Assembly (NCBI GenBank): GCA_963514005.1 | Contig: OY740783.1 | Coordinates: forward strand, 128,960,001-129,024,000 | Direction: 5' to 3' | From: Raja brachyura | Taxonomy: Eukaryota | Length of the DNA stretch: 64,000 nt | Shown here: positions 1-64,000 of the stretch, piece after piece | How the letters are laid out: every line of letters begins with the position of its first letter | Position numbering within the stretch: position 1 is the first letter of the stretch | Notes under the pieces: generated by a model | What the model was told of the DNA's origin: nothing | Database searches by the model: none | The model's input: only the letters and a program-made list of their open reading frames with translations | Program-made: the position numbers and the translations under genes

Positions 1-1880
1 GTCACTGCCTCCTAGTTGTTCCTTAACCTCAAGTTCCTTTATCAAATCTGGTTAATTACATAACAGTATATCCAGAATGGTCTTCTCCCTGGTAGGCTCC
101 AGTACAAGCTGCACGAAGAATCCATCACAAAGACAATCCACAAACCCCCCTTTCTTGGGGTCCAGTGCCAATTTGATTTTCGCAGTCTACCTGCATGTTG
201 AAATCTCCCATAACAACTGCAGCATTACCTTTACTACATGCAAATTTTAACTCCTGATTCAACTTGCACCCTATATCCACATTACTATTTGGGGGCCTGT
301 AGATAAGTCCCATTAGGGTCTTTTTACCGTTACAATTCCTTACTTCTATCCATACTGACCCCACATCTCCTGTTTCAATGTCACCCATTTCAAGGGACTG
401 AATTTCATTCCTCACCAACAGAGCTACCCCACCCCCTCTGCCCACCTGTCTGTCTTTTCGCTAGGAGGTATACCCTTGAATATTCAGTTCCCAGCCCTGG
501 CCCTCTTGCAGCCATGTCTCTGTAATTCCCACAACATCATACTTTCCAATTTCTTACTGAGCGTCAAGCTCGTCCACTTTATATCTTATACTTCCCGCAT
601 TCCTATACAACACTTTGACCTCCGTATTCACCCCCACCCCCACCCCCCCCCCCCCCCCCCCGCACGGCTCGAATTGGCCCTGACGTTACTCTCTTATCCC
701 TTCTCGAACTTTCCTTCCCATTAATTCGAGAGTCTTTTGTAATTCTTCCTGTACTCACTTCCCCTTCAACACCATCTGTATGCTCACAATTTCTAAATCC
801 CTTCCCCCACTATTTAGTTTAAACCCACACGTGTAGCCCTAGCAAACCTGCCTGCCAGAATGTCGGTCGCCCTCCAGCTAAGCTGTAACCCGTCCCATTT
901 GTACAGGTCACCCCTACCCCAGAAGAGATGCCAGTGGTCTATAAATCTAACTCCTTGCTCCCTGCACCAGCCCCTCAGCCACACATTCAGATCCCCTATC
1001 TCCCTGTTCCTGTCCTCACTAGCACAAGGTACTGGAAGCAATCCAGAGATAACCACCCCAGAAGTCCTGCTTTTCGGTCTGCTTCCTAACTCTCTTAACT
1101 CACGTTGCAGAACCCCCTTCCTCTTATTCTCGATGTCGTTCGTGCCGACATGCACAACTATTGTTCACCTTCCCATCGAGGATGTTCTGAATTCGGTTCA
1201 TGACATCTTGAACCCTGGCGCCAGGGAGGCAACAGACGATCCTCGAGTCTCGCCTGCCGCCGCACAATCTCCTGTCCGCAACGCGGACCATGGAGTCGCC
1301 CACCACTATGGCACTGCCCGACGTCGGTCTCGCCGGTCGAGTCCCATCTCTGGGATTGGAGCCACCTACATGTCCACTGCTCAGACTGGAAGTGTATTCT
1401 CCCCCGACAGTTCCCAAGAGGGTGTACTGTTTTCAATAGGCACAGCCACCTGGATCTTCTGCACTCCACGGTTACCACCCATTCTCGCAGTCACACACCT
1501 TGGTTCTTCCCGTATCCTCTACGTAACCACCTCACTGCAGGCCCTGTCCAGGAAACTCTCGTTTTCCCGCATGGCCCTGAGGTCAACCAGCTGCTTCTCC
1601 AGTGCCCCAACACGGTCCTTCAGGAGCTGAACCTGGACGCACTTGCCACAGTTGTAGCAGCCAGAGGCAACATCCGTGTCCCTGGGCTCCCACGTTCTAC
1701 AAGCATCACACTCTCATCTTCCCCGTAATGTGTTCACCGCGTCCTGTCAGCACCAGCTTTTTGCGTAGTCTCCTCTCCTCAGCCTCCTCGCCGAAGACTC
1801 TCGAGCCAAAGACTCACACTTTACTCACAAGGCCGCTCGCTCACTGCCGCTCTCCCAGAGCAGCCTTGCTTATATTCACT
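1..1880 (-). mobile_element. CR1-type LINE, 5' part: frameshifted ORF1 with SGNH/GDSL esterase domain and start of the ORF2 endonuclease; continues off the window start
   Basis: ORFs 1124-1417 (IVVGDSMVR..CCLPGARV) and 814-1155 (HVGTNDI, ISGLLP, DGLQL) give the esterase motifs. ORF 125-445 (RGGGVALLV, IYRPP, VMGDFN) is an APE endonuclease. Closely similar to 27280-27970. Confidence 0.9.
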
Positions 1881-2328: not shown

Positions 2329-2736
2329 ATCCCGACGGGGATGTCTCAGTGGTGACTGGGACGGAGGGGGCTTCGGCCACGTTACCATGTGTGTATCGGC
2401 AATCCCAGCGTTACCGCACCGCCCTCACGGTCACATGGATGAGGAAGGATCCCTACCGACACATCGTCACGTTCAGACCACGAGCCGATGGATCCTGGGC
2501 GGCGGAGAACAGAGCAACTCGGTTCGAGCTGGTCGGCAACCCAGAGCGGGGAAACGCCTCAATCAGGATAAACCAGCTGAGGGTGGAGGACAGTCACGAC
2601 TACCTGTGTCTGGTGGAGTTCAGCAAAGAGGAAAACTACGATCCGAGAAAGGACATCGACGAAAAGTTGAGGAGCAGCGTACACCCCCCGTACACCCACC
2701 AGTACCAGCGTGAGCTCCAGCTGCGGGTCACACCCG
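2329..2736 (+). CDS. Receptor gene A, Ig V-set exon (Siglec-15-like, homologous to V2 of gene B); upstream exons not found in the window
   Basis: Acceptor tccttccctcag| and donor G|gtaaga; 408 nt, phase 1-1, open frame. Ig motifs LPC..VTW..RFELVGNPERGNASIRI..EDSHDYLCLVEF..LQLRV. Confidence 0.88.
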
Positions 2737-2889
2737 GTAAGAAACCATCGCCTCATTTTGCCGTGTAGAGAGAAGGTGCAGAGGGAGGGAGGAGAGCAGG
2801 AACAGGAAACCCGATCTCCCGGGACCTAGTGGGCGCAGCCTCGCATCTGGAGGGTCAGATACAACGCCAGAGAAAGGTCAACCATAGTT

Positions 2890-3720
2890 GATCAATGTAT
2901 TGGAGTCATTTGGCGAGGTGAGGAGTTGAATGCCTCAGAGGACACAAAGTGCTGTGGTACGATAGGATTCTCAGAAGGATCTAGGTTGGGCCCCGGGCAG
3001 GAGTTTGGGAACCAGGCGCGAGAAGGCGGCATTAAGTCAACGAACTGTCGGGGATTGAGAAGCAGTTATCGAGCAGAATGTGGAATGAAATATCTGGATC
3101 TCTGTCACGTTGAGAGTCTGCGGCTGGCGAGGTACTTCAGAGATTGGTTCTTGGTCTCAACTATTCATAGTCTGCATCAGTGAGTTGATTGAAGGGGGGG
3201 AAATTGTCAGGTCTGATGATGGAGGAAGTGCCTTGGGACTGTGAGAGGGCAGGAGGACGCGGAGATTCGGGAAAGGTGGGCAAGCTAAGCGAGTGAGTGA
3301 GAGCATAATGTGGAATAAAATGTGGCAAATTATCCACACGGCTGAATAAACATAAAACCAGAGTGTTTATTAAATGGTGAGAGATAGGGCGCTGTGAATG
3401 TTCAAATAGACCCGAGTGTGCTTGTTCCCAGGCCAATGAAGGGTGATGTACTGATGTCGAAGAGACGAGAAAGGCAATAGTTGGTCAGGTTATATCAAGA
3501 GAGGATTTATATTCAAGGCTTGAGATATTTCACTGCAGTTATGTAAGGATCCAGCGGGACCTCACCTGCAGTACTGGGTCGGACTTTGCTCTTCTTAACT
3601 ACAATAAAGCCACGATTAGTGTGGAGCGAGTGTAGTGAAGATCCCTTCACTGTTTCCCGGAAGCGCAGGTCGATTGAAGTTCAGGGGAGATTGAGTAGAC
3701 CGGAGACCGTGGAGAATGCA
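2890..3720 (+). mobile_element. Old degraded CR1 ORF2 fragment
   Basis: Decayed similarity to CR1 RT 3' regions elsewhere in the window; no open frame. Confidence 0.5.
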
Positions 3721-4043
3721 GGTATAGGAACATTGAGCAGAAAAAAAGCTACTGGAGGAACTCGATAGGCCAGGTAGCATGTCTGGTAGGAAATTGGCGA
3801 ATGACAATTCATATCGAGACCTTGCCTCAAAACTGCACAAAACCACGTATTTGGATTTCCTTCTACAGTTGCCTGACTTCCTGAGCGCTGTCAGCAGGCT
3901 GTTATTTGCTCGAGCAGAGTAGACCTGTATTCTCCAGGGTGCAGAGAATGAGAGGTGATCTTAGTGAAGCAAACATAATTTGTACATTGTCGATGGCTCC
4001 CCTTTCCCATTGACCACTCTGACCTCTCTCATTCTCTCCTCAG

Positions 4044-4143
4044 TCACGCAGAGTTACATGGTTCTGATCATGTGGATCCCTCTAGGATTGAAAACCGTTT
4101 TCCTTTCAGTGATGTGTGTTGTCTTCTACCGTGACAAACTCAG
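4044..4143 (+). CDS. Receptor gene A, transmembrane exon with an intramembrane lysine
   Basis: Acceptor ctctcctcag| and donor AG|gtatgt; 100 nt, phase 1-2, in frame with the V exon. Encodes VTQSYMVLIMWIPLGLKTVFLSVMCVVFYRDKL. A paralogous exon of identical length lies at 18112-18211. Confidence 0.85.
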
Positions 4144-4993
4144 GTATGTAATATTGCGATTCTATGCCTGGAATATAAACTCAATGGCCTTTGGGGTGTG
4201 ATTGGAAAAAGGGAGGTTTCCTAGGCCGCGCCAACCATCGATCATCCATGCACTAGTTCTATCCTGCACTATAGGGGGCGTTTGCAGAGGACAATTATCC
4301 TACAAACCCGCACGTATTTGGGATATGGGAGGGACGAAAACCATGCGGTCACGGGGAGCATGTGGAAACTCCGCACAGACAGCACCCGTGATCAGGGTCG
4401 AACCCGGGACTCTGCGCTGCAAGGCAGCATCTCTACAACTGCGCCACCGTGGCTCCCCTGCCGCATTGGCAATACATGGTTCAGGTGCATCATGTACCTA
4501 CAGATGGAAGAACAGCTTCTTACCCTCTCAGACGCTTTGAGAAACCCCTCAAAAGATAAGAATGTATTCCCGATCCTCCAGTCTACCTTGATGGGGCACT
4601 TGCCCTCTGCCCTTTCTCTGTAAGACTATATTCTGCACGGCTTGGCTCTATGGAATAATTTATCTGGATGACACGCTAAACAATGTTTTTTCCTCGGATC
4701 TGTGTCAAGCTGACGATAATAAACCAATACCTTGCTCCAGGTCAGACAATCCCCCTCACTGTCAACACAACGACCAATATACGTGTCCCCTGTTAAGTTA
4801 ATCACCTGTTTCGCATATAGATGTTCACCTCAAATGTTATTGTCAAACGCTGACATTGACAATAACGTCTCCCCTCTGTTCAAATCTCCGTCAGAATCTC
4901 TTCACAGATTTAAATGACGGCTGTGAATGTCAGAAAGGGTCTTATGGTACAAATTACCGAGGCTTGTTTTAATTGGTCTTGTTGTGTCCTCAG

Positions 4994-5027
4994 CAAGCGG
5001 GGAAACGGATCCATCCGAGGAAGCTGA
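4994..5027 (+). CDS. Receptor gene A, last coding exon (short tail SKRGNGSIRGS-stop)
   Basis: Acceptor ggtcttgttgtgtcctcag|, phase compatible. The intron end and exon are homologous to 16496-16555 (-). AATAAA follows at 5173. Confidence 0.7.
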
Positions 5028-16495: not shown

Positions 16496-16511
16496 TCATT
16501 CCCGACTCATT
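16496..16511 (-). CDS. Receptor gene B, last coding exon (tail RMSRE-stop)
   Basis: Acceptor ggtcttgttctgtccacag|, homologous to the last exon of gene A and phase compatible with the TM exon. Confidence 0.6.
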
Positions 16512-18111: not shown

Positions 18112-18211
18112 CTGGTTTTGTCCCTGATTAAAATGAAGCCCATCACCAAAAGGACAAGGCTTTTCACTCCAAGTGGAATACACAGTATCAGAGGGTAGGA
18201 AAACTGTGGGG
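18112..18211 (-). CDS. Receptor gene B, transmembrane exon with an intramembrane lysine
   Basis: Acceptor ctctctcttcag| and donor AG|gtatgt; 100 nt. Encodes APQFSYPLILCIPLGVKSLVLLVMGFILIRDKT. Confidence 0.85.
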
Positions 18212-23395: not shown

Positions 23396-23743
23396 CTGTT
23401 GCAACTTGCAGTTGGATCTCGCACTGGAACAGATGACAGGTCGAGGTCACGATCTGCACCACACACAGGTAGCCGTCACTGTCCTCCACACTCAGCTGCT
23501 TTATCCTGGTTGAGGCGTTTCCCCGCTTTGGGTCCCCGACCAGTTCGATCCGAGTTGCACCGTTCTCCGCCGCCCAGGATCCATCAGCTTGGGGTGTGAA
23601 CGTGACGATGTGTCGGTAGAGATCCTTCCTCATCCATGTGACCGTGCGAGGCATGTGGCTCGGCAGAGGAGTTGAGAACACACAAGGTAACGTAGTCGAA
23701 GCCCCCTCGGTCCCAGTCACCACTGAGACATTCCCTCTGGGAG
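23396..23743 (-). CDS. Receptor gene B, second Ig V-set exon (V2)
   Basis: Acceptor tccttccttcag| and donor G|gtaaga; 348 nt, phase 1-1, open. Motifs LPC..VTW..EDSDGYLCVVQI..QLQV. Confidence 0.88.
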
Positions 23744-24995: not shown

Positions 24996-27970
24996 TAATA
25001 GACAAGAGACAATAGACAATAGGTGCAGGACTAGGCCATTCGGCCCTTCGAGCCAACACCGCCATTCAATGTGATCATGGCTCATTATCCACAATTAATA
25101 CCCCGTTCCTGCCTTCTCCCCATATCTCCACTATCTTTAAGAACCCTATCAAGCTCTCTTGAAAGTATCCGGAGAACCGGCCTCCACCCCCCTCTGATGT
25201 AGTGTACACGCAGAGAATTCCACAGACTCACAACTCTCTGTGTGACAAAGTTCTAAATGTCTTACCCCTTAATCTTAAACTGTGACCCCTGGTTCTGGAC
25301 TCCCCCAACATCAGGAACATGTTTCCTCCCTCTTCCGTGAGAAACGCTTAATGATATTATATGTTACAATAGAATCCCCTCTCATCCTTCTAAATTCCAG
25401 AGTACACAAGCCCAGCCACTCCATTCTCTCAGCATATGACAGTCCCGCCATCCCAGGAATTAAACTTGTGAACCGAAGCTGCACTTTTTCAATAGCAAGA
25501 ATGTTCTTCCTTAAATTTGGAGACCAAACCTGCACACAATACTTCAGGTGTGGTCTCACTATAGCCCTGTACAATTTCAGAAGGACCTCTTTGCTCCTAT
25601 ACTCAACTCCTCTTGTTATGAAGGCCAACATGCCATTAGCTTTCTTCACTGCCTGCTGTACCTGCATGCTTATTTTTATTGACTAATGAACAAGGACCCC
25701 AGATCTCATTGTACTTCCCCTTTACCCAACGTGACACCATTTAGATAATAATCTGCCTTCCTGTTTTTGCTACCAAAGTGGATAACCTCACATTTATCCA
25801 CATTAAACTGCATCTCCCATGCATCTGCCCACTCACCCAACATGTCCAAGTCACCCTGCATTCTCATAGCATCCTCCTCACAGTTCACACTACCACCCAG
25901 CTTGGTGTCATCTGCAAATTTGTTAATGTTACTTTGAATCCCTTCATCTAAATCATTGATGTATATTGTAATTCGCTGCGGTCCCAGACCATGCCTTGCG
26001 GTAAACCATTAGTCTTTGCCTGTCATTCTGAAAGGGACCCGTTAATCCATACTCTTTGTTTCCTGTCTGCCAACCAATTTTCTATCCATGTCAGCACTCC
26101 ATCACCAATACCATGTGCCCTAATTTTGCCCACTAGTCTCCTATGCAGGATGTAATCAAATGCTTTCTGAAAGTCCAGGTACACTACATCCACTGGCTCT
26201 CCCTTGTCCATTTTCCTAGTTACATCCTGAAAAATTCCAGAAGATTAGTCAAGCACGATTTCCCCTTCATAAATCATGTTGACTCAGACCGATCCTGTTA
26301 CTGCTATCCAAATGTGTGGCTATTTCATCTTTTACGATTGACTCCAGCATCTTCCCCACCACTGATGTCAGGCTAACTGGTCTATAAGTCCCTGTTTCCT
26401 CTCTCCCGCCTTTCTTAAAAAGTGGGATAACTATAGCTACCCTCCAATCCACAGGAACTGATCCTGAATGTATAGAACATTGGAAAATTATCACCAATGC
26501 ATCCACGATTTCTAGAGCCACTTCCTTAAGTACCCTGGGATGCAGACCATCGGGCCCTGGGGATTTATCAGCTTTCAGTCCCATCAGTCTACCTAACACC
26601 ATTTCCTGCCTAATGTGGATTTCCTTCAGTTCCTCAGTCACCCCAGATCCTCTGGCCACTAGGACATCAGAAAGAATGTCTGTGTCCTCCTTAGTGAAGA
26701 CGGATCCAAAGTACCTGTTCAACTCATCTGCCATTTCCTTGTTCCCCATAATAAATTCACCTTTTTCAGTCTTCAAGGGTCGAATTTTGGTAATAACTAT
26801 TTTTTTCCTCTTCACATCCCTAAAGAAGCTTTTTCTATCCACCTTTATATTCTTGGCTAGTTTACCTTCGAACCTCATCTTTTCTCCCCGTATTGCGTTT
26901 TTAGTTATCTTCTGTTGCTCTTTAAACATTTCCCAATCCTCTTGCTTCCCGCTCATCTTTGCCATGTTGTACTTCTTCTCTTTTATTTTTAATCTGACCT
27001 TGACTTCCCATGTCAGCCACGGTCACCCCTTACTCCCCTTGGAATCTTTCTTCCTCTTTGGAATGAACTGATCCTGCACCTTCTGTATTATTCCCAGAAA
27101 TACCTTCCATTGTTGTTCCACTGTCATCCCTGCTAGGGTATTTTTCCAGTCAACTTTGGCCAGCTCCTCCCTCATGGGGCCATATTCCCCTTTATTCAAC
27201 TGTAACACTGACACCTCCGATTTACCCTTCTCCCTCTCATATTGTAGATTCAAACTTGCCATATTATGGTCACTACTTCCAAATGGCTCCTTAGCCTCAA
27301 GTTCCCTTATCAAATCCGAATCATTACATAACACTAAATTCAGAATTGCCTTCTCCCTGGTAGGCTCCTGTACAAGCTGCTATAAGAATCCATCATGGAG
27401 GCATTCCACAAACTCCCTTTCTTGGGGTCCAGTACCAACAGTATTTTCCCAGTCTACCTGCATGTTGAAATCTCCCATAACAGCTGTAGCATTACCTTTA
27501 CGACATGCCAATTTTATCTCCTGATTCAACTTGCACCCAATATCCAGGCTACTGTTTGGGGGCCTTTACCCTTACAATTCCTTAGTTCTATCCATAACGA
27601 CTCCACATCTTCTGTTTCAATGATACCCCATGCAAGGGACTGAATTTCATTCTTCACCAACAGAGCTACCCCCTGCCCACTCTCTGGCTTTTCGATAGCC
27701 CTGACCCTCTTGCAGCCATGTTTCTGTAATTCCCACAACATCATACTTGCCAATTTCTAACTGAGCCTCAAGCTCGTCCACTTTATTTCTCATACTTCGC
27801 ACATTCATATACAACTCTTTGACTTCGGTATTCACCTCCCCTCACACACCTGACCAATTGGCCCTGACCTTACTCTCTTATCCCTTCTCGAACTTTCCTT
27901 CCCAATAATTCGGGAGTCTTTTGTAACTTTTCCTGTACTCACGTCCCCTTTAACTCCATCTTTATACTCC
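24996..27970 (-). mobile_element. CR1 LINE, near-complete ORF2 region with stops, frameshifts and deletions
   Basis: Endonuclease pieces (YMNVRS, GITETWL, SSDHN), RT pieces (KSPGPDGLHPRVLKE, YRPVSLTS, YLDFQKAFD) and a (ctattgt)n tail near 25000. Confidence 0.92.
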
Positions 27971-28344
27971 CAGTAAACCTCCACTGGACATGTCGGTGGA
28001 CATCTTAATGGGCAAGGATGAGAGGAGGCAGTTCTGATGTACAGGGTCTGAGAGAACTCCAGGTGTAGTACTGGGCAGAGGTCTCCCCGCAGGGTGGTGA
28101 AGGTGGGCTCAACATCCATGGACACGGTCATGATGAGCTTTGAAGGTCTCACACGGGTGGTGAAGGTCGGAGAAGGTCTCATTAAATCCCTACTTTCAGT
28201 TGTTGGCACCACAGTCTCCTCCCATCCCCTACCCTCCCCTACCCTTCCCTCCCCTCCCCACCCTCCTCACCTCCATTTAGTGACTTCAGAAGTCACCTCG
28301 CAGCAAATCCCCATCACAGTTTGTGTCCAGCGTTACGATGCATC

Positions 28345-30607: not shown

Positions 30608-30988
30608 CTCTCACAGTCAGGCGAATGACCTTTGGTAATAGAGGAGGTCCACCGACGTCTTTCACATTGCAGATAAATGGACCATTATCCTTCTGTCCCA
30701 GTCGCTCCACCACTATCGAGGCATCCCCCCGACTGAGGTTCCCGATGAACCTAAACCGACCTCCTCCTGCCTCATGCCCCACTCCATCACACAAGGAGTG
30801 GAAGGCAGCAGTGAACCGACACGTAATAATGGCATTGTAACCCTGCAGGTCACCTTTGAACCAGCTCAGCTCGGGTTTGATGGTGCGATCAGTGGCCAGG
30901 GGGGTGAACGTGCATGGCAACACGGCCGATCCTCCTTCCATGGCAGACACTTCATCGGCAGGTGGAAAATGCCAAGTGTGGGTGGCTG
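30608..30988 (-). CDS. Receptor gene B, first Ig V-set exon (V1), strongly Siglec-15-like
   Basis: Acceptor ccctttctattccag| and donor G|gtgagg; 381 nt, phase 1-1. Motifs EVSAMEGGSAVLPCTFT..SWFKG..TCRFTAAFHSLC..RFRFIGNLSRGDASIVVERL..FICNV..IRLTV, including the extra Cys pair typical of the Siglec-15 V domain. Confidence 0.88.
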
Positions 30989-32384: not shown

Positions 32385-33082
32385 GTCAAATGCTGCCTGA
32401 CCCGTTCACTCCCTCCAACACTTTGTCATATTTTTCCCCACACAAGAATCATTTTGAAGCCACTGTGATTCACAGGAGGTCATTAAACAAATACATTTTG
32501 GAATCAACATTTCAAATTGTGGATTTTCAGGTGGAAAGAAATTGTGTGGGGGGCGGGGGGGGGGGGGAGTAAAGGCCTGGAGGACATTGATCTGAGGTTT
32601 GAAATAACCCTTTAGGAGGAAATGAGAATATTAAAAGGATGTTCCTTCAGAAAGGAGATGAGGAGGAATTTCTTTAGTCGCAGGGTGGTGAATCTGTGCA
32701 AGTCATTGCCACAGACGGCTGTGGAGGCCGCCCATTGATGTTTTTAAGGTGGAGATTGACAGTTTCTTGATTCGTAAGAGTGTCACGGGTTATGGGGAGA
32801 AGGCAGGAGAATGGTGTTGAGACAGCCATGATTGAATGGCGGAGTAGACTTGATAAGTAGGTTGGATAGCATATAAACAAAAGTTTTTCACTGTACCTTG
32901 GTACCAGGTACGGGGTACTGATTGTGGATGATCAGCCATGATCATATTGAATGGTAGTGCTAGCTCGAGGGGCCAAATGGCCTGCCCCTGCATCAATTTT
33001 CTATCTTTCTATCATTCTACTCAGCTGGAAGACCTCAGCAGACCAAGTCGTAACCGTGGAGAGAAAGGAACGACAGGCACAA

Positions 33083-33470
33083 AATGCTGGAGTAACTCAG
33101 CGGGTCAGGCAGCATCTGTGGAGAACATGGATAGGTGACGTTTCACAGAGTGCTGGAGTAACTCAGCGGGTCAGGCAGCATTTGTGGAGAACACAGATAG
33201 GTGACGTTTCACAGAGTGCTGGAGTAACTCAGCGGGTCAGGCAGCATCTGTGGAGAACATGGATAGGTGACGTTTCACAGAGTGCTGGAGTAACTCAGCG
33301 GGTCAGGCAGCATCTGTGGTGAACACAGATAGGTGAAGTTTCACAGAGTGCTGGAGTAACTCAGTGAGTCAGGCAGCATCTCTGGAGAACATGGATAGGT
33401 GATGTTTCACAGAGTGCTGGAGTAACTCAGCGGGCCAGGCAGCATCTGTGGAGAAAAGGAACAGGTGACA
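33083..33470. repeat. 66-bp tandem repeat, about 6 units
   Basis: Unit cagagtgctggagtaactcagcgggtcaggcagcatctgtggagaacatggataggtgacgtttca. Confidence 0.92.
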
Positions 33471-35319
33471 TTTCTGGCCGCGACACTTTTTCATGCTGAA
33501 AGATAGAGGAGGCCAGATCAAACCAGGGCCAGCAACAGAGGACCTCAAGGAAGGGTGGAGACCATAATGGCCTCCATTAATTGTCTGGGAATGGTCGAGA
33601 TTTCTGGTGGTGACGATCCCATTCCCCTCCTTCTTTTCCTGTAGCCTGTTATTTACTCATGGTGATCAGTAAGAACGGTCTCGACCCGAAACGTCACCCA
33701 TTCCTTCTCTCCAGAGACGCTGCCTGTCCCGCTGAGTTACTCCAGCTTTTTGTGTCTATCTGAACCCTCTCTAAGATATCAGTCCATCACTCATTCCTGA
33801 GCATGCTACTATCTAAGCTGCCACATGGTGGCGCAAGTGGTACAGTTGCCTGGGACCTCGTGTGCAATGACACAGTCATAGATTTATACAGCGTGGAAAC
33901 AGGCCCTTCGGCCCAACTCGTCCATGCTGACCTCGCTCGTCCCATTTGCATTTGCCTGACCCATAACCCTCTCAACCTTTCCAACCCACGAACCTGTACA
34001 AATGTCTTATAAACATTATAATTGTACCTGCCTCCGACGCTTCTTCTGGGAGCTCTTTCCACACACACACACCACCCTCTGTATGAAATACTTGCCCCTC
34101 AGCTCCCTTTTACGTGTGTAGATTTAGCTTGAAGAAACAGCGATTAAACAGGCCCTTCAGCCCGCTGAGTCTGTGCTGACCATCCATCAACACTTTAACT
34201 CTAGTTTAATTTAGTTTAGAGATACAATGTGGAAACAGGCTCTTCGGCCCACCGAGTCCGCGCGGACCAGCGATCCCTGTACACTCGCTCTATCCTACAC
34301 ATCAGGGACAATTCACGGCAGCTAATTAATCTACAAACCTGCACGTCTTTGGGCTGTGGGAGGGAACTGGAACACCTGGAGGAAGCCCACAGGGTCACGG
34401 GGAGAACGTGCAAACTCCACACAGACAACCGTGGTCGAGATCGAAGCTGGGAATCTGGTGATGTCAGGCAGCAACGTTACCGCTGCGCCACTCTGCCACC
34501 CTAGTTCTACGTTATCCCACTCTCTATACACTAGGGGCAATTTGCAGAGGGCCAATCAGCCTACAAACCCACACATCTTGGAATGTGGGAGGAAACCGGA
34601 GTACCAGGAGAAAACCCACACGGTCACAGGGTGAACGTGCAAACTCCACACAGACAGCGCCCGAGGTCAGGATCTCTGGTGCTGTGAGTCAGCAGAAACC
34701 TGGCATCACATTCGGCGCAGACACAGCGGACTGAAGGACCTGATCCTGTGTTGTGCTGTTCTATGTTCCATTTTTCCAGTACATTAATGACTACACCGGT
34801 AATGCTTCCTGCTCTTGTGCTGAAACTTAACGGTTTGTCATTTCTGCAGCAAATTTCCACATTGTTTGCATTAGAACAAGGGAAAGAGGAACAGGGGTAA
34901 GCCATTTGGCCGCTCGAGCCTTGTCTGCTTACACTGTGGCCGTGGCTGGTCTTTTGTCTTCACACCATCCCCTGCTCCACGCCTTCATCCCCCAACATCA
35001 AGAAATCTATCAGATTTTCTATTTTGAAGTCACAAAGAACGTGCTTATCGACACCCCTACTTCCTCACTAGTTTGAGGAGTCTCGGCATGTCGCCGAACA
35101 CGCTACTCAACTTGTACAAGTATACGGTGGAGAGCGTAAAGACTGGTTGCGTCACAGCCTGGTTCAATAACTCGAACACGCAGGAAAGAAGGAGGCTGCA
35201 AAGAAGATGCGGGGGGAAGGGGGGGTCTTGTCTCCCACACCCTCAAGGTCGACTGTGGGAAGCGCCCACTGGGCACGAAGGCCGAAGGTGGCCAGGAGAG
35301 GAGAGGGATGAAAGTCATA

Positions 35320-38155
35320 AGGTCATAAGGAATAGGAGCAGAATTAGGCCATTCAGCCCATCAAATCGATTCCACCATTCAATCATACCTGATCTATCTC
35401 TCCCTTCTAACCCCATTCTCCTGCCTTCTCCCCATAACCTCTGATGCCCGTTATGTTGGAATTATTTCATAGTCATACTGTGTGGAAACAGGCACTTCGG
35501 CCCAACTTTCACAAGATGACCAAGATGCCTCCTCTACACTAGTGCTACCTGCCCGTCTTTGGCCCATATTCCTTTAAATCTTTCATATCCGTGTACCTGT
35601 CCAAATGTCTTCTAGATTTAGGGTTACACAAAAAGCTGGAGAAACTCAGTGGGTGCAGCAGCATCTAAGGAGTGAAGGAGATAGGCGACGTTTCGGGTCG
35701 AGACCCTTCTTCAGACTGTCTTCTAGATTTAGTTCAGTTTAGAGACACAGCATGGAAACAGGCCCTTTGGCCCACTGAGTCCCCGCCAGCCAGCGATCAC
35801 CAGTTCTATGTGATCCCATTTTTGCATCCTACGCATTAGGGGCAATTTACAGAAGCCAATTAACCTACAAACTTGCACGTCTTTGGAGTGTGGGAGGAAA
35901 CCAGAGCACACAAGGAAAATCTGGCATTGTTTCTGCCACCACCGTGCCGGCCTTATGTGAAATGTTGAGAAGTTGTGTATATCAGGAAGTGCAGAAGAGA
36001 AAATGATCACAGTGCAGAATATGGCACTACACCTACAGAGAAAGTGCAGGTAAGAAAGTGTGTATTTGTGTGTATGTAAATGTGTAAAATGTGTGTCTGG
36101 TGCTGCATTTGTGCCTGCATATGTGTCTGTGCGAGTGCATGTGTGTGTGAGTATGTGCGTGCCTATCTCCATGCATGTGTGATGTGTATGGGTGTGTGCA
36201 TGTGGGTTGTATATCTATATGTGTATGATTCTGTAGGGTGCGTGCATGCACGTATGCGTCAATGTCCCTTGGTTTGCGTGTGTCATTGGATCATTGTGTA
36301 TGTTTTTGTATAAATGTGTGAGTGCGTGTATGTGTGTCCATTTGTATGATCTTGTGCGTGCGTATGACTTTATGTATGTGAGTGTGTGTCACTTGCTGGT
36401 GTATGTTTGTGTGTCTGTCTATATTTCTGTATGTGTGCACATCTCATTTGTGTGCGTGTGTATATGCGGCAGTGTCACTGTGTATGCGTCTACTTTGTGC
36501 GTATGTCAGTGACTGTGTGTGTCTCTAATTTCTGTGTGCATATATCTGTGACTGTATGTGTGCATTTGCATCCCTATATTGTGCCGGCATGGGTGTGTGT
36601 GTGGTGTGTGTGTGTGGGTCTGTGTGTGTGTGTGGGTCTGTGTATATGTGTGCGTATATGTGGGTGTGTGCATGTGTGTGTGTGTGTGTGGGTGCACGTG
36701 TTTGTACATGTGCGTTGGCACATGCGAGTGTGTGCATGTGTATGTGTGCATGTTGTGTGTATATCAGATATTCAGATATTCAAACTTTATTGTCATTGTG
36801 CAGTGTACAAGTACAGAGACAATGAAATGCAGTTGGCATCTCACCCAGAAGTGCGAACACAGAATAATGGAACAGTAATATATATATATATGTATATACA
36901 GCAGCAGTAGTGCAATCATGCCATACGCATGCACCAAAGACAAAAAAATCCATATTGGCTACGGTGGAGATGCTGCCTTACAGTGCCAGAGGCCCGGATT
37001 TGATAGCAGTATGCGTGTATGTGTGTGTGCATGTTGTATGTATGTGTGTGTGTGTGTCTAGTGGAGGTTTACGAGAATGATCGCAGGAATGAGTGGGTTA
37101 ACATATGATGAGCGTTTGACGGCACTGGGCCTGTACTGGCTGGAGTGTAGAAGGATGAGAGGGGACTTCATAGAAACTTACTGAATAGTGAAAGGCCTGG
37201 ATAGAGAGCATGTGGAGAGGATGTTTCCCCTAGTGGAAGAGTCAAGAACAAGAGGCCACAGCATCAGCATAAAAGGAGATGAGGAGGAATTTCTTTAGTC
37301 AGAGGGTGGAATTCATATAGAAACATAGAAACATAGAAAATAGATGCAGGAGGAGGACATTCGGCACTTCGAGCCAGCAACGCCTTTCATTGTGATGATG
37401 GCTGATCGTCCCCTATCAATAACCCGTGCCTGCCTTCTCCCCATATCCATTGACTCCACTAGCCCCAAGAGCTCTATCTATAGAAACATAGCAAATAGGT
37501 GCAGGAGGAGGCCAAGGGTGCGGGTCGAAGGGTGTGGAGGCCCTCAATGGATATTTTTGAGGCAGAGATTTGCCAGATTCTTGATTAGTACGGGTGTCAG
37601 GGGTTGCGGGGAGAAAGCAGGGGAATGGGGTTGAGAGGGTAAGGTGGAACAGCCATGTTTGAGTGATAGAGTAGACTTGGTGGGCCGAATGGCCTAATTC
37701 AGCTCATATCACTTATGAACTTATGACACGTCTAAAGGTCATGAGTCCAGCATGAGTCCAGCATGAGTCCAGATTCCAGTTCTTATTTCCAGCTTACATT
37801 ATCTCCAGCTCCCTCATCCTGCTTCTCTTGACCGGTGTCTGTTCTTCCCTCAGCTCCCAGCGGGCATGCCTCAGTGGCGACTGGGACTGAAGGGGCTTCG
37901 GCCATGTTACCGTGTGTGTTCCCAACGCCTCAGCCCGATACCGTCCCACTCACGGTCACGTGGATGAGGAAGGATCCCTACCGACACATCGTCACGTTCA
38001 GACCCCAAGCTGACGGATCCAGGGCGGCGGAGAACGGAGCAACTCGGTTCGAGCTGGTCGGCGACCCAGAGCATGGAAACACCTCAACCAGGATAAAGCA
38101 GCTGAGTGTGGGGGACAGTCACGGCTACCTGTGACTGGTGGAGATCGTGATCTCA
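35320..38155 (+). repeat. Inverted segmental duplication of the gene B V1-V2 intron and V2 exon (about 23440-29430)
   Basis: Collinear reverse-complement matches: 35320-36760 to 28480-29430; 37058-37270 to 24130-24267, 24919-24995 and 27972-27985; 37580-38155 to 23440-24030. Confidence 0.85.
37854..38155 (+). pseudogene. Pseudo-exon copy of receptor V2
   Basis: Acceptor intact, but the second Ig Cys codon is TGA (38132-38134) and the G strand and donor are missing. Confidence 0.85.
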
Positions 38156-38639: not shown

Positions 38640-38830
38640 ATGCTGGAGTCACTCAGCGGGTCAGGCAGCATCTGTGGAGAACATGGATAGGTGACGTTTC
38701 ACAGAGTGCTGGAGTAACTCAGTGGGTCAGGCAGCATCTCTGGAGAACATGGATAGGTGACGTTTCACAGTGCTGGAGTCACTCAGTGGGTCAGGCAGCA
38801 TCTCTGGAGAACATGGATAGGTGACGTTTC
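38640..38830. repeat. 66-bp tandem repeat, about 3 units
   Basis: Same unit as 33083-33470. Confidence 0.85.
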
Positions 38831-40091: not shown

Positions 40092-40152
40092 TGTTTCCAT
40101 GTACTGAGACCAACAGCAGAACTGTCGGCAGCCAAGTGGAGAGGAGCCTCAT
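40092..40152 (-). CDS. Receptor gene B, leader (signal peptide) exon MRLLSTWLPTVLLLVSVHGN
   Basis: ATG, hydrophobic core and a VHG cleavage-like site; 61 nt with a phase-1 donor A|gtaggt that joins V1 in frame. Non-repetitive sequence, too short for the ORF track. Confidence 0.75.
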
Positions 40153-42935: not shown

Positions 42936-43080
42936 GGATCCTGGGCGGTGGAGAACAGAGCAACTTAGTTGGAACTGGTCGGGGACCCAGAGCGCGGAAA
43001 CGCCTCAACCAGGATAAAACAGCTGAGCGTGGATGACAGTCACGGCTACCTGTGTTTGGTAGAGATCGTGACCTCATCCC
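42936..43080 (+). pseudogene. Remnant (3' half) of a receptor V2 exon
   Basis: Encodes GSWAVENRAT-stop-LELVGDPERGNASTRIKQLSVDDSHGYLCLVEIVTS; the downstream flank matches 38155-38490. Confidence 0.85.
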
Positions 43081-43826: not shown

Positions 43827-44810
43827 TTATTTGACAGTACTCAAAATCCTCCCTGCATAAGTGTCAGGGGTGGCCACGGGTTTGTTGTAGAAGCGGTGAA
43901 AAGTCCTTTCATTACTCCAACCCGCTGTGGCCAGGATGTGGTCCAATGGTACTTCCATCCTCCTAGCCGCCGAAGTGGATGCCGCCCTGGTGGAGTGAGA
44001 TTTGAATATATTAGTGTCCACCCCCGCCGCATCCAAAACCACCCTTAACCATCTAGAAATGGTTTGCACCGTGACTTTATGATGGGGCTTCTTGTGGCTT
44101 ATAAGCAAAGCTGTCTCCGTGCCCCTGAGATTTTTGGTAACTGTGATATATTGTGAAATTAACGTGACGATGCAGAGTCGAGTATCTGCTGGATATGCCA
44201 GAAATTCCAAGGTATGACCAGACGCTCCGTGTCGATCTTGTTTCAACAGTCCCTGCACATGAAAAGTGACTTTATCATTGGTGATAGTCATGGCATCCAG
44301 ATTAAGTTTGTGTAGAGACTGGACCCGTTGTGCCGTGATAAGTGCCATAATCATTACCATTTTGTATGTGAGCTTTGCCAAAGTGAGTCCCGTGTTAGGT
44401 GTCCATCCTCGCAGCATAGTTAGGACTGTGCTGATATCCCACGTATGGTTATATCTGGGCCTAGGGGGATTGGAATTGAATATTCCTCTCATTAGTTTGG
44501 ACACTAATGGATGTGATCCAATTCCCAATTGGTCACTCCCCTGGCCCAAGTAGGATGATAGTGCACTCCTGGCACTGTTTATGGCACTGTAGCTCAGTCC
44601 CTCATCAAAGTGTAGGGTAGCCAAGAATTCCAGCACTTCTGTAATGGTAGCGGATTCATATGTAGTGTTGGTAGTAGCGCAGAATCCTTCCCATTTCTTG
44701 ATGTAGGTGAGGTACTGCTTCCTGGTGGACTCCCTGCATGCCGCCGAGATGGTGTCTATCATTCTGCTGGTGAGTCCGAATCCGCGAAGAGGCCGTTTTA
44801 GAATCTGCAA
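43827..44810 (-). CDS. DIRS tyrosine recombinase, intact ORF (start codon uncertain)
   Basis: SAM-like N-terminal domain; catalytic residues R (TAQRVQ), HSTR, AGW and Y (FHRFY). Confidence 0.92.
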   Translation of the reverse strand: MQILKRPLRGFGLTSRMIDTISAACRESTRKQYLTYIKKWEGFCATTNTTYESATITEVLEFLATLHFDEGLSYSAINSARSALSSYLGQGSDQLGIGSHPLVSKLMRGIFNSNPPRPRYNHTWDISTVLTMLRGWTPNTGLTLAKLTYKMVMIMALITAQRVQSLHKLNLDAMTITNDKVTFHVQGLLKQDRHGASGHTLEFLAYPADTRLCIVTLISQYITVTKNLRGTETALLISHKKPHHKVTVQTISRWLRVVLDAAGVDTNIFKSHSTRAASTSAARRMEVPLDHILATAGWSNERTFHRFYNKPVATPDTYAGRILSTVK

Positions 44811-46810
44811 ATTAACAGGTCCATGCGGTCATAACATGGGTGATGTTCTCCTGTGACAGGATGAACGAGCAGGCTAGGTCGTTTATTGACCCGAATGCAA
44901 AGTTCTGTGGCCATCTTCTGTACCGCTGGGAACCATGGTTGGGTAGGCCAGTCGGGCACCACCAAAATACCCGATGCGGAATCTTGTTTTATTTTCTGCA
45001 AGACCCGACTGATGAGGCAGAAAGGGGGGAATGCATAGCAGAACAAATCCCCCCAATGTAGCGTGAAAGCGTCCATCGCTACTGCCCCAGGGTCCGGTTC
45101 CCAAGCAACATATGTTGGTAGTTGGTGATTTAATCTGGACGCGAAGAGGTCGATATCTGGTGTCCCATAACGTTCTACAATATCTGTGAACACTTTTCGA
45201 TCCAACATCCATTCTATGTTGTCGTTAAGTTTGCGTGACCTGGTGTCTGCCACTGTGTTTAGCTTGCCTGGGAGGTAAGTGGCTGAGATCCAAATTTCCC
45301 TTTGCAGACACCAGAGCCAGATATTGTTGGCCAATTCATCGCACGATATCGACTTTATTCCGCCCATATGGTTAATATAGGCCACCACCGTGGTGTTGTC
45401 AATTTGTATCCTTACATGAACTTTGTGCATGTTTGTGCAGTATGCCCTGAGGCCGTGAAATGCTGCCAGCATTTCTGAATAGTTAATTCCCAAATTTTTG
45501 AATAGGGTTAACTCTTGTGCACTCCATCTACCTCCACAACTAGAGGTAGTATTAGTAGCTCCCCAACCTTTGGCACTGGCATCCGTTTGTAAGGTGATCG
45601 AGGGATTGATGATAGTGATGGGTTTGGAACAATATTGGGCATTAGGCATCCACCAATTTAATTCGGCTTTTGCCTTTTCTGGTATTTTCATAGGCCTATC
45701 GAAATGGCCTGCATGACTTTTGAGAGCTATAATTTTGGCTCTTTGTAAGTTTTGATAATGTAAAGGCCCATATTGTGCTGCGGGAAAGGCAGCCACTATC
45801 TTCCCAATCACCCTGGCCACCTGCCGAATGGATGGGTCCTTGATGCCAATAAGGCTCCTGCAAGCCTCTATCAAGTCCTCCACCTTACTTAGTGGCAACG
45901 TGATAGACATTTGCACTGAGTCGATATTGAACCCCAAGTATTTCATGGTGGTAGAGGGTTTTAATATTGATTTATCTGGATGTATAATGAAACCCAGCTT
46001 CTGAAAGAGATGTTTCGTGGCTGTAACTGCCAATGTAGCCATTTCCAAACTTTCCCCAACAATGAGGATATCATCAAGATAGGCCATAACAATATGATTC
46101 TGTTTCCTTAAGTAGGCCAAGGCTGGTTTTAATATCTTGGTAAACAATCTGGGTGCTGATGATAACCCATTAGGCAAGGCTTTGTATTGCCATAATTGTC
46201 CCATCCAGATAAATTTTAAATATTTCCTATGATCCTTGTGTATTGGTACAGAATAGTATGCATCTTTGAGGTCAATGCATGCCATGTAGTACCCATAATC
46301 TATTAACTGTATAGCAGTGTCAAAGGTGTCCATTTTAAAATGAACATACTGAACAGAAGTATTCAGTTCGGTCAAATCTATGATAATGCGGCAACCGCCG
46401 TCTTTTTTGTTTTTGGTGAATATATTAGACACGAACTCCTGTGGTTCTTTGGTAGCCTTCTCAATTACCCCTTTTTCAATTAATCTGTATAGTTCAGCAT
46501 GCCCTGCTACCCTCTCTTTTTGAGAGAGTATGAATTTTCGGCTGGGTAAATGCTGGACCGGGGTAGGGAGTTCGTGAATAAATTCAATTTTGTAGCCCTG
46601 AATACTCCTGAGTATGAAAGGATCAGAGGTAAAAGTGCGCCAATTTTCATAAAACATGTGCAACCGGCCCCCTACATAAAGTGAATTTAGGCAAGATGTG
46701 TTTCTGGGGAAACCAGACCCACCTACCTCCATGGTTATTGCCGGTGTTGCGGTTTCTGTCCTTGTTTCCTTTGTTGATTCATCGTGTTGTAGGAGTGGCG
46801 CATCTTCCAA
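44798..46810 (-). CDS. DIRS reverse transcriptase / RNase H / adenine-methyltransferase-like ORF, intact
   Basis: IDLKDAYY, LPNGLSSAP, YLDD; RNase H TDAS..GWG and DNTT; C-terminal DLFAS..YAFPPF. Confidence 0.95.
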   Translation of the reverse strand: MEDAPLLQHDESTKETRTETATPAITMEVGGSGFPRNTSCLNSLYVGGRLHMFYENWRTFTSDPFILRSIQGYKIEFIHELPTPVQHLPSRKFILSQKERVAGHAELYRLIEKGVIEKATKEPQEFVSNIFTKNKKDGGCRIIIDLTELNTSVQYVHFKMDTFDTAIQLIDYGYYMACIDLKDAYYSVPIHKDHRKYLKFIWMGQLWQYKALPNGLSSAPRLFTKILKPALAYLRKQNHIVMAYLDDILIVGESLEMATLAVTATKHLFQKLGFIIHPDKSILKPSTTMKYLGFNIDSVQMSITLPLSKVEDLIEACRSLIGIKDPSIRQVARVIGKIVAAFPAAQYGPLHYQNLQRAKIIALKSHAGHFDRPMKIPEKAKAELNWWMPNAQYCSKPITIINPSITLQTDASAKGWGATNTTSSCGGRWSAQELTLFKNLGINYSEMLAAFHGLRAYCTNMHKVHVRIQIDNTTVVAYINHMGGIKSISCDELANNIWLWCLQREIWISATYLPGKLNTVADTRSRKLNDNIEWMLDRKVFTDIVERYGTPDIDLFASRLNHQLPTYVAWEPDPGAVAMDAFTLHWGDLFCYAFPPFCLISRVLQKIKQDSASGILVVPDWPTQPWFPAVQKMATELCIRVNKRPSLLVHPVTGEHHPCYDRMDLLICRF

Positions 46811-46832
46811 GAAGGCCGGGCTGGGCCATGGC

Positions 46833-47597
46833 CTAAAAGAGACCGCTGTGCAGGTTGGCCGGCCTTCTAGCTTTCACCACAGGCAGGTCTCTGATGGTAT
46901 CTCTGTCCGGTGGGTGTGTAGGGGTGCTGTCTTTGTGGGTAATGAGGTTTGGTAGGCCCGGGAACCTTGACAGGCCCAAGGCCTTGGCCTCCTCATCAAG
47001 ATCTTTTACTTGCTTGGGAAGGTTATCCCCGAACAGCAAGCTTGGAGGCTGTGTCTTCCCAGGCTTACACAACCCCGCAAACTTGGGGTTAAGCGCCGGC
47101 TTTATGATGCTCTTTCTGAAATTGTTTATCTCATACTGTGTATTACACAGTAGAGCCAGGGCATCTTGCAGTTCTTCCGGCAACTCTATCCCCACTGCAG
47201 TTCTGGCCACTGCTGTGATCCCGGCGGTTAAGAGCTTTAGGATTTTTTGAAGTTTGATTTCCTGCCCTCTGCTCGAGGGGCTCATATTCCCCCAAATAGG
47301 GTTGTTCACCGCAGGGACATTAAGTGAGTTACAGTTTTCAGGAGCCATATATTTATCAGCTGTAGAATTTATGGCCTGTTCCTGTAGCTGGTTGGTCGCC
47401 ATGTAGTTAATGCTGGCTGCCAGCTTAGGGTGGATAGGTAGGCCTTTCTGTGTCGGCATTGCATGTTTATTTACCATATCCAGATATTCTTCACACACCC
47501 CTGACACAGATGGTTGTTCAGCCAGCTCCCCTTCTTCTGGGGCAGCCCAGTTCTGACCCTCAATGCTCCCCTGCGAGGAGGGTGAGACATTTGGCAG
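46833..47597 (-). CDS. DIRS gag-like ORF, C-terminal part (split by the LINE insertion)
   Basis: PENC..L.VPAVN..IW and LLFGDNL motifs; fuses in frame with 50745-51086. Confidence 0.8.
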   Translation of the reverse strand: MPNVSPSSQGSIEGQNWAAPEEGELAEQPSVSGVCEEYLDMVNKHAMPTQKGLPIHPKLAASINYMATNQLQEQAINSTADKYMAPENCNSLNVPAVNNPIWGNMSPSSRGQEIKLQKILKLLTAGITAVARTAVGIELPEELQDALALLCNTQYEINNFRKSIIKPALNPKFAGLCKPGKTQPPSLLFGDNLPKQVKDLDEEAKALGLSRFPGLPNLITHKDSTPTHPPDRDTIRDLPVVKARRPANLHSGLF

Positions 47598-47604
47598 TCC
47601 TTGG

Positions 47605-62519: not shown

Positions 62520-62738
62520 ATGGCGAGGGAAACAAACCTGAGGTTGGACTTGCCCAGCGAGGTCCTGGTGCCGGACTGCGGGCCCTACTCGGCCCCCGCG
62601 TCGGGCGCGATGCTCGGCTGCAACTGTCTGCGACCCTCCTCATACCGGGCGCTGTGCAGCGCCGTGTCCACCCTGGCCAGGATCGACGACTTCTACTGCG
62701 AGAAGATCGGCTCAGGATTCTTCTCGGAGGTGTTCAAG
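62520..62738 (+). CDS. TESK1: Dual-specificity testis-specific protein kinase, first coding exon (TESK1 favoured over TESK2); gene continues beyond the window
   Basis: Encodes MARET...[36 protein letters not shown] then |gtaagg; 219 nt, phase 0. SAVS.LAR is TESK1-type as recalled, whereas TESK2 has SAFSRLTR. Confidence 0.85.
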
Positions 62739-62829: not shown

Positions 62830-63390
62830 TCAGCGGGTTAGGCAGCATCTGTGGAGAACATGCATAGGTGATGTTTCACAGAGTGCTGGAGTAACTCAGC
62901 GGGTCAGGCAGCATCTGTGGAGAACATGGATAGGTGACGTTTCACAGAGTGCTGGAGTAACTCAGCGGGTCAGGCAGCATCTGTGGAGAACATGGATAGG
63001 TGACGTTTCACAGAGTGCTGGAGTAACTCAGCGGGTCAGGCAGCATCTGTGGAGAACATGGATAGGTGACGTTTCACAGAGTGCTGGAGTAACTCAGCGG
63101 GTCAGGCAGCATCTGTGGAGAACATGGATAGGTGACGTTTCACAGAGTGCTGGAGTAACTCAGCGGGTCAGGCGTCATCTCTGGAGAACATGGATAGGTG
63201 ACGTTTCACAGAGTGCTGGAGTAACTCAGCGGGTCAGGCAGCATCTGTGGAGAACATGGATAGGTGATGTTTCACAGAGTGCTGGAGTAACTCAGCGGGT
63301 CAGGCGTCATCTGTGGAGAACATGGATAGGTGACGTTTCACAGAGTGCTGGAGTAACTCAGCGGGTCAGGCGTCGTCTGTGGAGAATGTG
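62830..63390. repeat. 66-bp tandem repeat, about 8.5 units, in a TESK1 intron
   Basis: Same unit as 33083; explains the repetitive ORF 62654-63391. Confidence 0.92.
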
Positions 63391-64000
63391 AATGGGTGAT
63401 GTTTCAGGTCGGGATCCTTCTTCAGACTGATGGTAGTAATGGGGGAGGGGTGAATTTCAGATAAAACTTTTATTTGCTGAAGCTGAATCTGTAGGAAGGA
63501 TGTTGTTAAGCTGCAACGGGTGTAGGGAAGATTTACGAGAATTTTGTCAGGACTAGAGGGCTTGAGCTGCAAGGGAGAGCTTTGGCAGACTGGGACCTTA
63601 TTCCTTGGAGTGCAGAAGGCTGAGGGATGATCTTACAGAGGTGTATAAATCATGAGAGGAATAGATCAGATGAATGCACGGAGTATTTTACCCAGGGTAG
63701 GAATCAAAAGCCATAGGACGTAGCTTTAAGGTAAGAGGAGCAAGAAGGCAATGTTTTCACTCTGAGGGTGGGGGGGTATATGGGACAAGGACGTAGTTGA
63801 GGCAAGTACTGTGAAACATACAGTACTTGGACACGTACATAGATACGATTTGGAAGATAGCCAAAAAGCTGGAGTAACTCAGCGGGACGGGCAGCATCAC
63901 TGGCGAGAAGGAATGGGTGATGTTTCAGGTCGAGACCCTTCAGAGGAATATGGGTCAAATGGGGACAAGTGAGTCTAGCTTAAATGGGGCATCTTGGCCA

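Follow-up and report, generated by a model that had tools for sequence, protein, structure and literature searches.

Two-V-domain, putatively Siglec-15-related receptors in the skate Raja brachyura, with a probably converted framework and a likely selected loop insert

Gene A of Raja brachyura is best explained as a two-V-domain, Siglec-15-related elasmobranch receptor in which the loops of the second V domain (V2) probably owe their pattern to conversion of the surrounding framework combined with selection on a loop insert of one skate clade. The gene was identified in a window of 64,000 nucleotides (the whole stretch analysed, G000:C3:128960001-129024000) of a 2.7 Gb genome. The V2 loop differences are real and so is the germline diversification of the loops. 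The loop pattern itself is ordinary, and the family diversifies as paired immune receptors usually do. Variable loops, conversion and dead copies are usual in such receptors, and the interesting part is the receptor family.

Results

Gene A is intact and its spliced sequence retains the insert

Gene A consists of a leader, V1, V2, a membrane exon with a Lys and a short tail, with the leader and V1 located 2-3 kb upstream of the window (Table 1). The V2 exons of genes A and B were both called as Ig V-set (Pfam E 1.4e-14 and 7e-13), and the Siglec Arg position of V2 is occupied by Leu in gene A and likewise in 65/66 V2 domains. Between V1 and V2, gene A has an intron of 4604 nt, whereas the two close paralogs compared have introns of 738 and 1043 nt. 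A decayed LINE-like stretch was noted in the gene A intron (window 1-1850 and upstream) and recurs at 27269-27972.

Splicing was assessed using contigs from public runs, the RNA nature of which was inferred from the spliced joints as the runs had no RNA record. The joint 2736 to 4044 was present in contigs of two runs and the joint 4143 to 4994 in two contigs/runs. Contigs with 2 and 3 differences were continuous across 2539-2729 and 2586-2729, respectively, and no joint was found within 2329-2736 in four runs, with a minor isoform possible as contigs drop rare forms. The single GT[AG]AG within the V2 exon is at 2710, 3' of the insert. Because the contigs run through the insert without a joint inside the exon, the F-G insert of gene A is retained in spliced sequence; an internal splice removing the extension, which an earlier sequence-only reading of the window had raised against itself, was not seen.

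Table 1. Exons, pseudo-exons and V2 segments of genes A and B. Positions are those of the window except where a contig position is given.
Feature	Position	Strand	Remarks
Gene A leader exon	G000:C3:128956737-797		Upstream of window; open frame
Gene A V1 exon	G000:C3:128957339-722		Upstream of window; open frame
Gene A V2 exon	2329..2736	+	Second V-set domain, model starts at A' strand; 408 nt, AG/GT, phase 1-1
V2 B-C loop, gene A	2394..2426	+	Codons 22-32; divergent island within putatively homogenised framework
Gene A F-strand Cys-to-QL segment	2610..2717	+	36 aa; contains insert
F-G insert, gene A	2628-2693	+	Codons 100-121; holds most of the putatively positively selected sites
Gene A membrane exon	4044..4143	+	Lys in helix, putative activating type
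Gene A tail exon	4994..5027	+	To stop codon; 11-residue tail without tyrosine motif
Gene B leader exon	40092..40152	-	
Gene B V1 exon	30608..30988	-	Asn replaces Siglec Arg; B-type lineage, common to rays
Gene B V2 exon	23396..23743	-	348 nt; F-G segment short (16 aa), carries two extra Cys
Gene B membrane exon	18112..18211	-	Lys in helix
Gene B tail exon	16496..16511	-	To stop
Exon C, orphan V2 pseudo-exon	37854..38146	+	Inverted, in intron 1 of gene B
Fragment D, partial V2 pseudo-exon	42936..43075	+	Has stop

V1 and membrane features resemble Siglec-15

The best solved relative of the gene A V1 was Siglec-15 (PDB 7zoz, E 4.7e-15), and CD33 was matched at E 7.6e-6. An F-strand Arg, a first-strand Trp and four Cys aligned with Siglec-15 in V1, where Cys 26, 57, 67 and 107 fall on the four Cys of 7zoz. 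The Arg was present in 34/41 A-type V1 domains, that of gene A included, and in 0/7 of the B-type domains, to which gene B belongs. Compared as folds, V1 and Siglec-15 gave Z 11.8 and rmsd 2.0 over 116 residues with 34% identity, and Siglec-15 was joint best match to the V2 fold (Z 13.9). In sequence, V2 matched pIgR weakly (E 1.5e-8), behind Siglec-15 (7.8e-11). Genes A and B both carry a membrane Lys and a short tail without an ITIM, as Siglec-15 does, and sister copies carry tyrosine motifs. The C2-set domain of Siglecs was absent, V2 being a V-set domain spliced directly to the membrane exon. Because of this missing C2 domain we call the family Siglec-15-related, on its sequence likeness, and do not give it ortholog status. 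V1 likely binds sialylated ligands, and gene A likely signals as an activating receptor via a DAP12/DAP10-type adaptor.

Human SIGLEC15 neighbours the SLC14A urea-transporter genes. In Raja brachyura the urea-transporter genes are located on contig C1 near 55 Mb and the receptor cluster on contig C3 beside TESK1; no Siglec-15-like exon was found by the urea transporters in 200 kb searched on one side only. The first coding exon of the TESK1-type kinase is at window 62520-62738 (+), with 97% identity to a database protein, in sequence that is GC-rich from about 61000. The kinase beside the cluster is named TESK1/TESK2-like in sharks, rays and birds and serves as a synteny marker, and TESK1 and receptor genes were on equally long contigs in five other elasmobranchs.

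The long F-G loop is a trait of batoids

Searching the genome with V2 returned 25 matches. Distant matches were set aside, as were the short fragment D and a copy on contig C987 that is identical to another, which left 16 V2 exons; 10 of these have the gene-A-type insert, in one case broken after the insert start. The others comprise one exon with a different 34-aa segment, one with 27 aa, gene B and its closest paralog B2 with 16 aa, and two that are truncated. The 20-aa extension that the sequence-only reading had ascribed to gene A is present, but the long loop is a clade trait and the usual form in this genome. Three copies are of putative inhibitory type: their membrane helix is neutral, and in two of the three, exons with tyrosine motifs come after it. 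Several other copies in the genome are broken. As like ectodomains are joined to a charged membrane helix in some members and to an ITIM tail in others, and the genes are clustered, the arrangement is that of a paired receptor family. A sister subfamily (L078-L088) at G000:C3:120.31-120.41 Mb and 128.40-128.41 Mb couples V1 to one, two or three V2-like domains and to a C2-type domain, with both Lys and non-Lys membrane forms.

All 49/49 V2 homologues and all 38/38 V1-profile homologues were from elasmobranchs (sharks, rays and skates), in searches that need shared words and that distant relatives could escape. Their tails were of the membrane-Lys or the tyrosine-motif kind, representing activating and ITIM-bearing forms, and the closest named proteins over V2 were from skates (86% and 77%). 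Among sharks the Cys-to-QL segment measured 17-19 aa (11 domains). An electric ray had 24 aa, stingrays and mantas 25-33 aa (30 domains), and skates 13-36 aa. From these lengths across species the long F-G loop appears to be a batoid gain, largest in one skate clade, and no oddity of gene A. In proteins of three skate genera the insert is fixed at 35-36 aa and its PP-x-T-H-Q end is invariant. The V1-V2 linker is short, 5 residues, in most of 44 proteins where it was matched. Other arrangements were noted in passing: the V1-V2 pair is repeated as a unit in bamboo-shark models P0170 and P0171, stingray models P0001-P0003 are V2-V2, and some ray models show V2-V2 with no V1. Trp replaces the B-strand Cys of V1 in an otherwise open gene at G000:C987:235135-235521 and in manta P0020, P0023 and P0032. 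Database labels of family members are automatic and inconsistent. No description of an elasmobranch Siglec-15-related family was found in the openly readable literature searched.

V2 varies in its loops on a shared framework

The three B-C loops reported by the sequence-only reading (YRQSQRYRTAL, FSTPLPSHMPR and FPTPQPDTVPL) were read as quoted, and the 60-nt difference between the V2 exons of genes A and B and the lengths of their Cys-to-QL segments were confirmed (Table 1). This segment is indeed highly charged in gene A (8 D/E and 6 K/R). Frameworks described as nearly identical are alike, at ~85% nucleotide identity. In six long-form genes the two loop regions named by that reading, 47/135 codons, hold 40/78 amino-acid changes (permutation p 0.0016), and over 41 relatives column entropy was 1.89 in the B-C loop and 2.17 in the F-G insert as compared to 0.77 in the framework. 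Separately, V2 codons 36-48 and 91-94 (window 2436-2474 and 2601-2612) form a C-C'-F face that hardly varies across the range from sharks to skates and is in part hydrophobic, which suggests a conserved contact surface.

Gene B has five exons as in gene A, with open frames and canonical splice sites. The supposed third paralog, with the loop FPTPQPDTVPL, proved to be the dead exon C, in which a TGA at 38132 replaces the second Cys and which is without a G strand and without a donor. The two extra Cys reported in gene B (TSTCHLFQC) are present as Cys102 (TGT) and Cys107 (TGC), but the pair is not conserved: both places are Phe in B2, a little-skate relative has one Cys, and the second place is also Cys in one long-form copy. 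A conserved disulfide as a feature of the family was rejected on these residues.

The gene B block with its inverted orphan exons (window 15000-43700) is duplicated 4.5 Mb away at G000:C3:133.46-133.49 Mb with ~82-92% identity, and within the block V1 is surrounded by V2-region copies in inverted orientation. The orphan exons could act as conversion donors. Mobile elements were also noted in the window. At 43827-47645 (-) three open frames overlap, one encoding a tyrosine recombinase of 333 aa, one a reverse transcriptase of 691 aa and one a further ORF; by arrangement this is presumably a DIRS-type retrotransposon. A LINE with a 1046-codon open frame carrying endonuclease and reverse transcriptase domains is located in or against it at 47438-50578 (+). 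A 66-nt tandem repeat occurs in dispersed arrays at 33078-33499, 38641-38830 and 62830-63430.

Silent divergence points to conversion of the V2 framework

Between genes A and B, silent differences numbered 43/94 in V1 (0.46), about 8/64 in the V2 framework (0.12) and 6/9 in the B-C loop (0.65), and Fisher tests on these contrasts gave p 1e-5 (V1 vs V2 framework) and 1e-3. At silent sites, V1 of genes A and B is thus about four times as diverged as their V2 framework. Divergence in the B-C loop is as high at silent sites (pS 0.65) as at replacement sites (pN 0.63), and the A, B and C comparison, which had been offered as a sign of selection, does not serve as one. The B-C bin showed 0.47 identity between the two genes and the intron 0.3, with flanking introns unalignable.

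The B-type V1 domains of skates and rays cluster together (SH-aLRT 96, with a long-branch warning on the V1 tree) and the B-type leader is distinct. Because its V1 joins skate with ray genes and its leader is distinct, the B-type lineage appears to be old. B-type V2 frameworks fall next to A-type frameworks from their own lineage. Keeping all eight B-type frameworks in one group was rejected (p-AU 4.2e-5) on a tree of only 72 columns from which pseudogenes were excluded and for which the tested group was named in advance. Given the discordant silent divergence and V2 frameworks that do not group by B-type, gene conversion of the framework best accounts for the A, B and C contrast, leaving the loops as putative old islands. 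Framework homogenisation by conversion had been named in the sequence-only reading as the alternative to selection, and for these exons it is the account that fits best.

Codon models favour selection on the insert and on V1

Selection was evaluated using our own implementation of codon models (F3x4, M0 to M8, naive Bayes sites). The main set was six long-form genes with open V1 and V2, among which genes on two small contigs may be alleles. For V2 the comparison of M2a with M1a gave 14.8 (p 6e-4), with omega 5.7 on 13% of sites. The top sites were 27, 100, 107, 112 and 114, 4/5 of them within the insert, and adding two pseudogenes (eight genes) gave 17.0. With a shared silent rate in the six genes, omega was 2.4 for the B-C loop and 1.9 for codons 94-129 (each p 0.017) as compared to 0.79 for the framework. 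The insert (codons 100-121, a boundary chosen after the first site test) holds 26 amino-acid changes and 1 silent change in the six genes against 41 and 13 elsewhere (Fisher p 0.028), and with its own silent rate its omega exceeds 1 (p 0.0012). The B-C loop alone, with its own silent rate, gave omega 1.18 (p 0.80), and selection on this loop by itself was rejected. Of the selection-driven loop diversification proposed earlier, the part that is supported concerns the F-G insert in the long-form set. The B-C loop alone does not bear it out, and V1 shows more. When each loop of the eight-gene set was given its own silent rate, neither departed from omega 1 (p 0.81 and 0.27).

The V2 result was sensitive to the null used. 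Allowing double substitutions lowered the test to 7.6 (p 0.022). Simulated nulls reached at least 14 in 0/36 plain runs, 1/42 with recombination and 4/70 with recombination plus double substitutions, and 28/70 of the last kind passed the nominal cut-off. The excess in the insert among non-strand columns alone had a permutation p of 0.079, and omega in other V2 loops was 0.9 against 2.9. Positive selection on the F-G insert among long-form genes is therefore likely, not proven, and borderline under the harshest null. Relaxed constraint contributes to the loop pattern, as constraint on the framework is itself weak (omega 0.6-0.84) and several of the copies have been broken. Selection in V1 was stronger, at 24.5 for six genes and 49.2 for eight, and with double substitutions allowed it was 16.1 and 34.6 (p 3e-8 for eight). 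The V1 sites lie at the N-terminus, the C-C' loop, the E-F region and the G strand.

Ig topology would place the V2 loops at the V1-V2 elbow

The structure of the loop was predicted, as the sequence-only reading had proposed. In the gene A V2 model (pLDDT 85) strand F extends to residue 99 and strand G resumes at 122, and the insert between them is predicted as two short helices, 105-108 and 111-116 (pLDDT 62-67). For the thorny-skate relative P0004 a two-domain model had pTM 0.77, and its whole ectodomain best matched LAR-family Ig1-2 pairs (Z 12.2, rmsd 3.7-4.6, 177-187 residues), which are bent back. JAML, the best two-domain match by Foldseek, was rejected as the same arrangement at rmsd 11. 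Two P0004 ectodomain copies folded together scored 0.00, which speaks neither for nor against pairing. In standard Ig topology the V2 B-C and F-G loops would face the V1 C-C' and E-F loops whether the pair is bent or extended. Because the topology would place these loops near each other, many of the selected sites of V1 and V2 may gather at the elbow.

Discussion

Taken together we consider it probable that gene A is a Siglec-15-related receptor with two V domains whose V2 loops reflect framework conversion plus selection on the skate-clade insert. V1 would bind sialic acid through its F-strand Arg. Recurrent conversion would homogenise the V2 framework across old subfamilies, and the B-C loop and the F-G/G segment would escape it, by selection or by mismatch, and keep their old divergence. 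The insert would most likely extend or tune a composite binding surface at the V1-V2 elbow, with a pathogen arms race as the likely driver, as proposed for mammalian paired Siglecs.

That relaxed constraint is the whole cause is a considerably less probable account, in which tolerant surface loops in a birth-and-death family give a false signal through clustered multi-base changes and short conversion tracts. It would explain the adjacent double changes at several selected codons, the many pseudogenes and the B-C omega near 1, and the harsh nulls that matched the test value and the loop-only permutation agree with it. It does not predict the near absence of silent changes in the insert, the lower omega of the other V2 loops, an insert length and PP-x-T-H-Q end held across three skate genera, or a V1 signal that withstands double substitutions. 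Following the sequence-only reading, V2 itself would be the ligand-binding domain, antibody-like and selected at its CDR1 and CDR3 equivalents, and V1 would be secondary. Selected V2 sites do fall in the B-C and F-G loops, loop length ranges from 13 to 36 aa across species, the model matches bent tandem-Ig structures in which V2 loops could be apical, B-type genes are without the V1 Arg, and some ray models consist of V2-V2 and no V1. However, the stronger selection and the conserved Arg belong to V1, the A-B difference in the B-C loop is equally large at silent sites, and V2 is membrane-proximal with no recombination signal beyond chance, leaving a likeness to antibodies that is topological only; we regard this account as improbable. 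Least probable is an insert that acts as a structural spacer or hinge wedge, setting the V1-V2 angle or masking the V1 site without touching ligand. The 5-residue linker, the V1-V2 unit repeated in two bamboo-shark proteins and the predicted helices at the V1-facing pole are consistent with such a role, but 26 replacements per silent change are unexpected for a purely structural element.

Beyond the preferred reading of conversion plus selection on the insert, we tentatively consider a broader one, which we hold possible though doubtful. Elasmobranchs would have a paired Siglec system that arose from a Siglec-15-like ancestor independently of the mammalian CD33 cluster. The V-V module would fold back to make the V1 sialic-acid face and the V2 B-C and F-G loops one germline-diversified site, in which selection lengthened the F-G loop of batoids from ~18 to 36 residues, and conversion, possibly fed by the inverted orphan exons C and D, would keep the V2 scaffold uniform as a loop cassette. 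If true, a self/non-self sialic-acid arms race arose separately in the oldest jawed lineage. Loop variants of 13 to 36 aa on one scaffold make a natural set for the study of how a second V domain tunes glycan recognition.

Among known systems, the variable B-C loop, long F-G loop and occasional extra Cys recall IgNAR/VNAR and antibody V domains. Unlike these, V2 is encoded from the A' to the G strand in one germline exon and the gene B Cys are not conserved. Patterns of recombination signals with 12- and 23-nt spacers had one match each against 0.9 and 0.8 expected, none at a V exon. A V(D)J-type rearranging receptor was rejected, the G strand being in the V exon and recombination signals not exceeding chance. 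Skate MDIR and teleost NITR/NILT are, according to PMC3031540, multigene activating/inhibitory Ig receptor families of fishes. MDIR is described as CD300/TREM/pIgR-like, whereas V1 here is Siglec-15-like. PILR alpha/beta are presented in PMC13358205 as paired inhibitory and DAP12-coupled receptors in which the V domain is Siglec-like and an Arg is critical; unlike the present receptors PILR has one V domain, and its structural match was lower (Z 8.8-9.1).

Siglec-15 itself has an F-strand Arg, an extra Cys pair, a membrane Lys and a short tail according to PMC11652361 and PMC7226832, and gene A has all four. The family differs in having V-V in place of V-C2, in being a fast-evolving multi-copy cluster with ITIM forms where Siglec-15 is one conserved gene, and in adjoining TESK1 on C3 with the urea-transporter genes on C1. 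Paired CD33-related Siglecs, for which we compared Siglec-5/-14, Siglec-11/-16 and Siglec-12 with its two V domains, combine like ectodomains of activating and inhibitory forms with gene conversion, a fast first domain and frequent dead activating copies, according to PMC5701461 and PMC6288428. Unlike them, the family is nearer in sequence to Siglec-15 than to CD33 and has no C2 domains, and its putative conversion shows most clearly in the second-domain framework and spares the loops there. Activating and inhibitory forms, conversion, a fast first domain and dead copies are what the two have in common.
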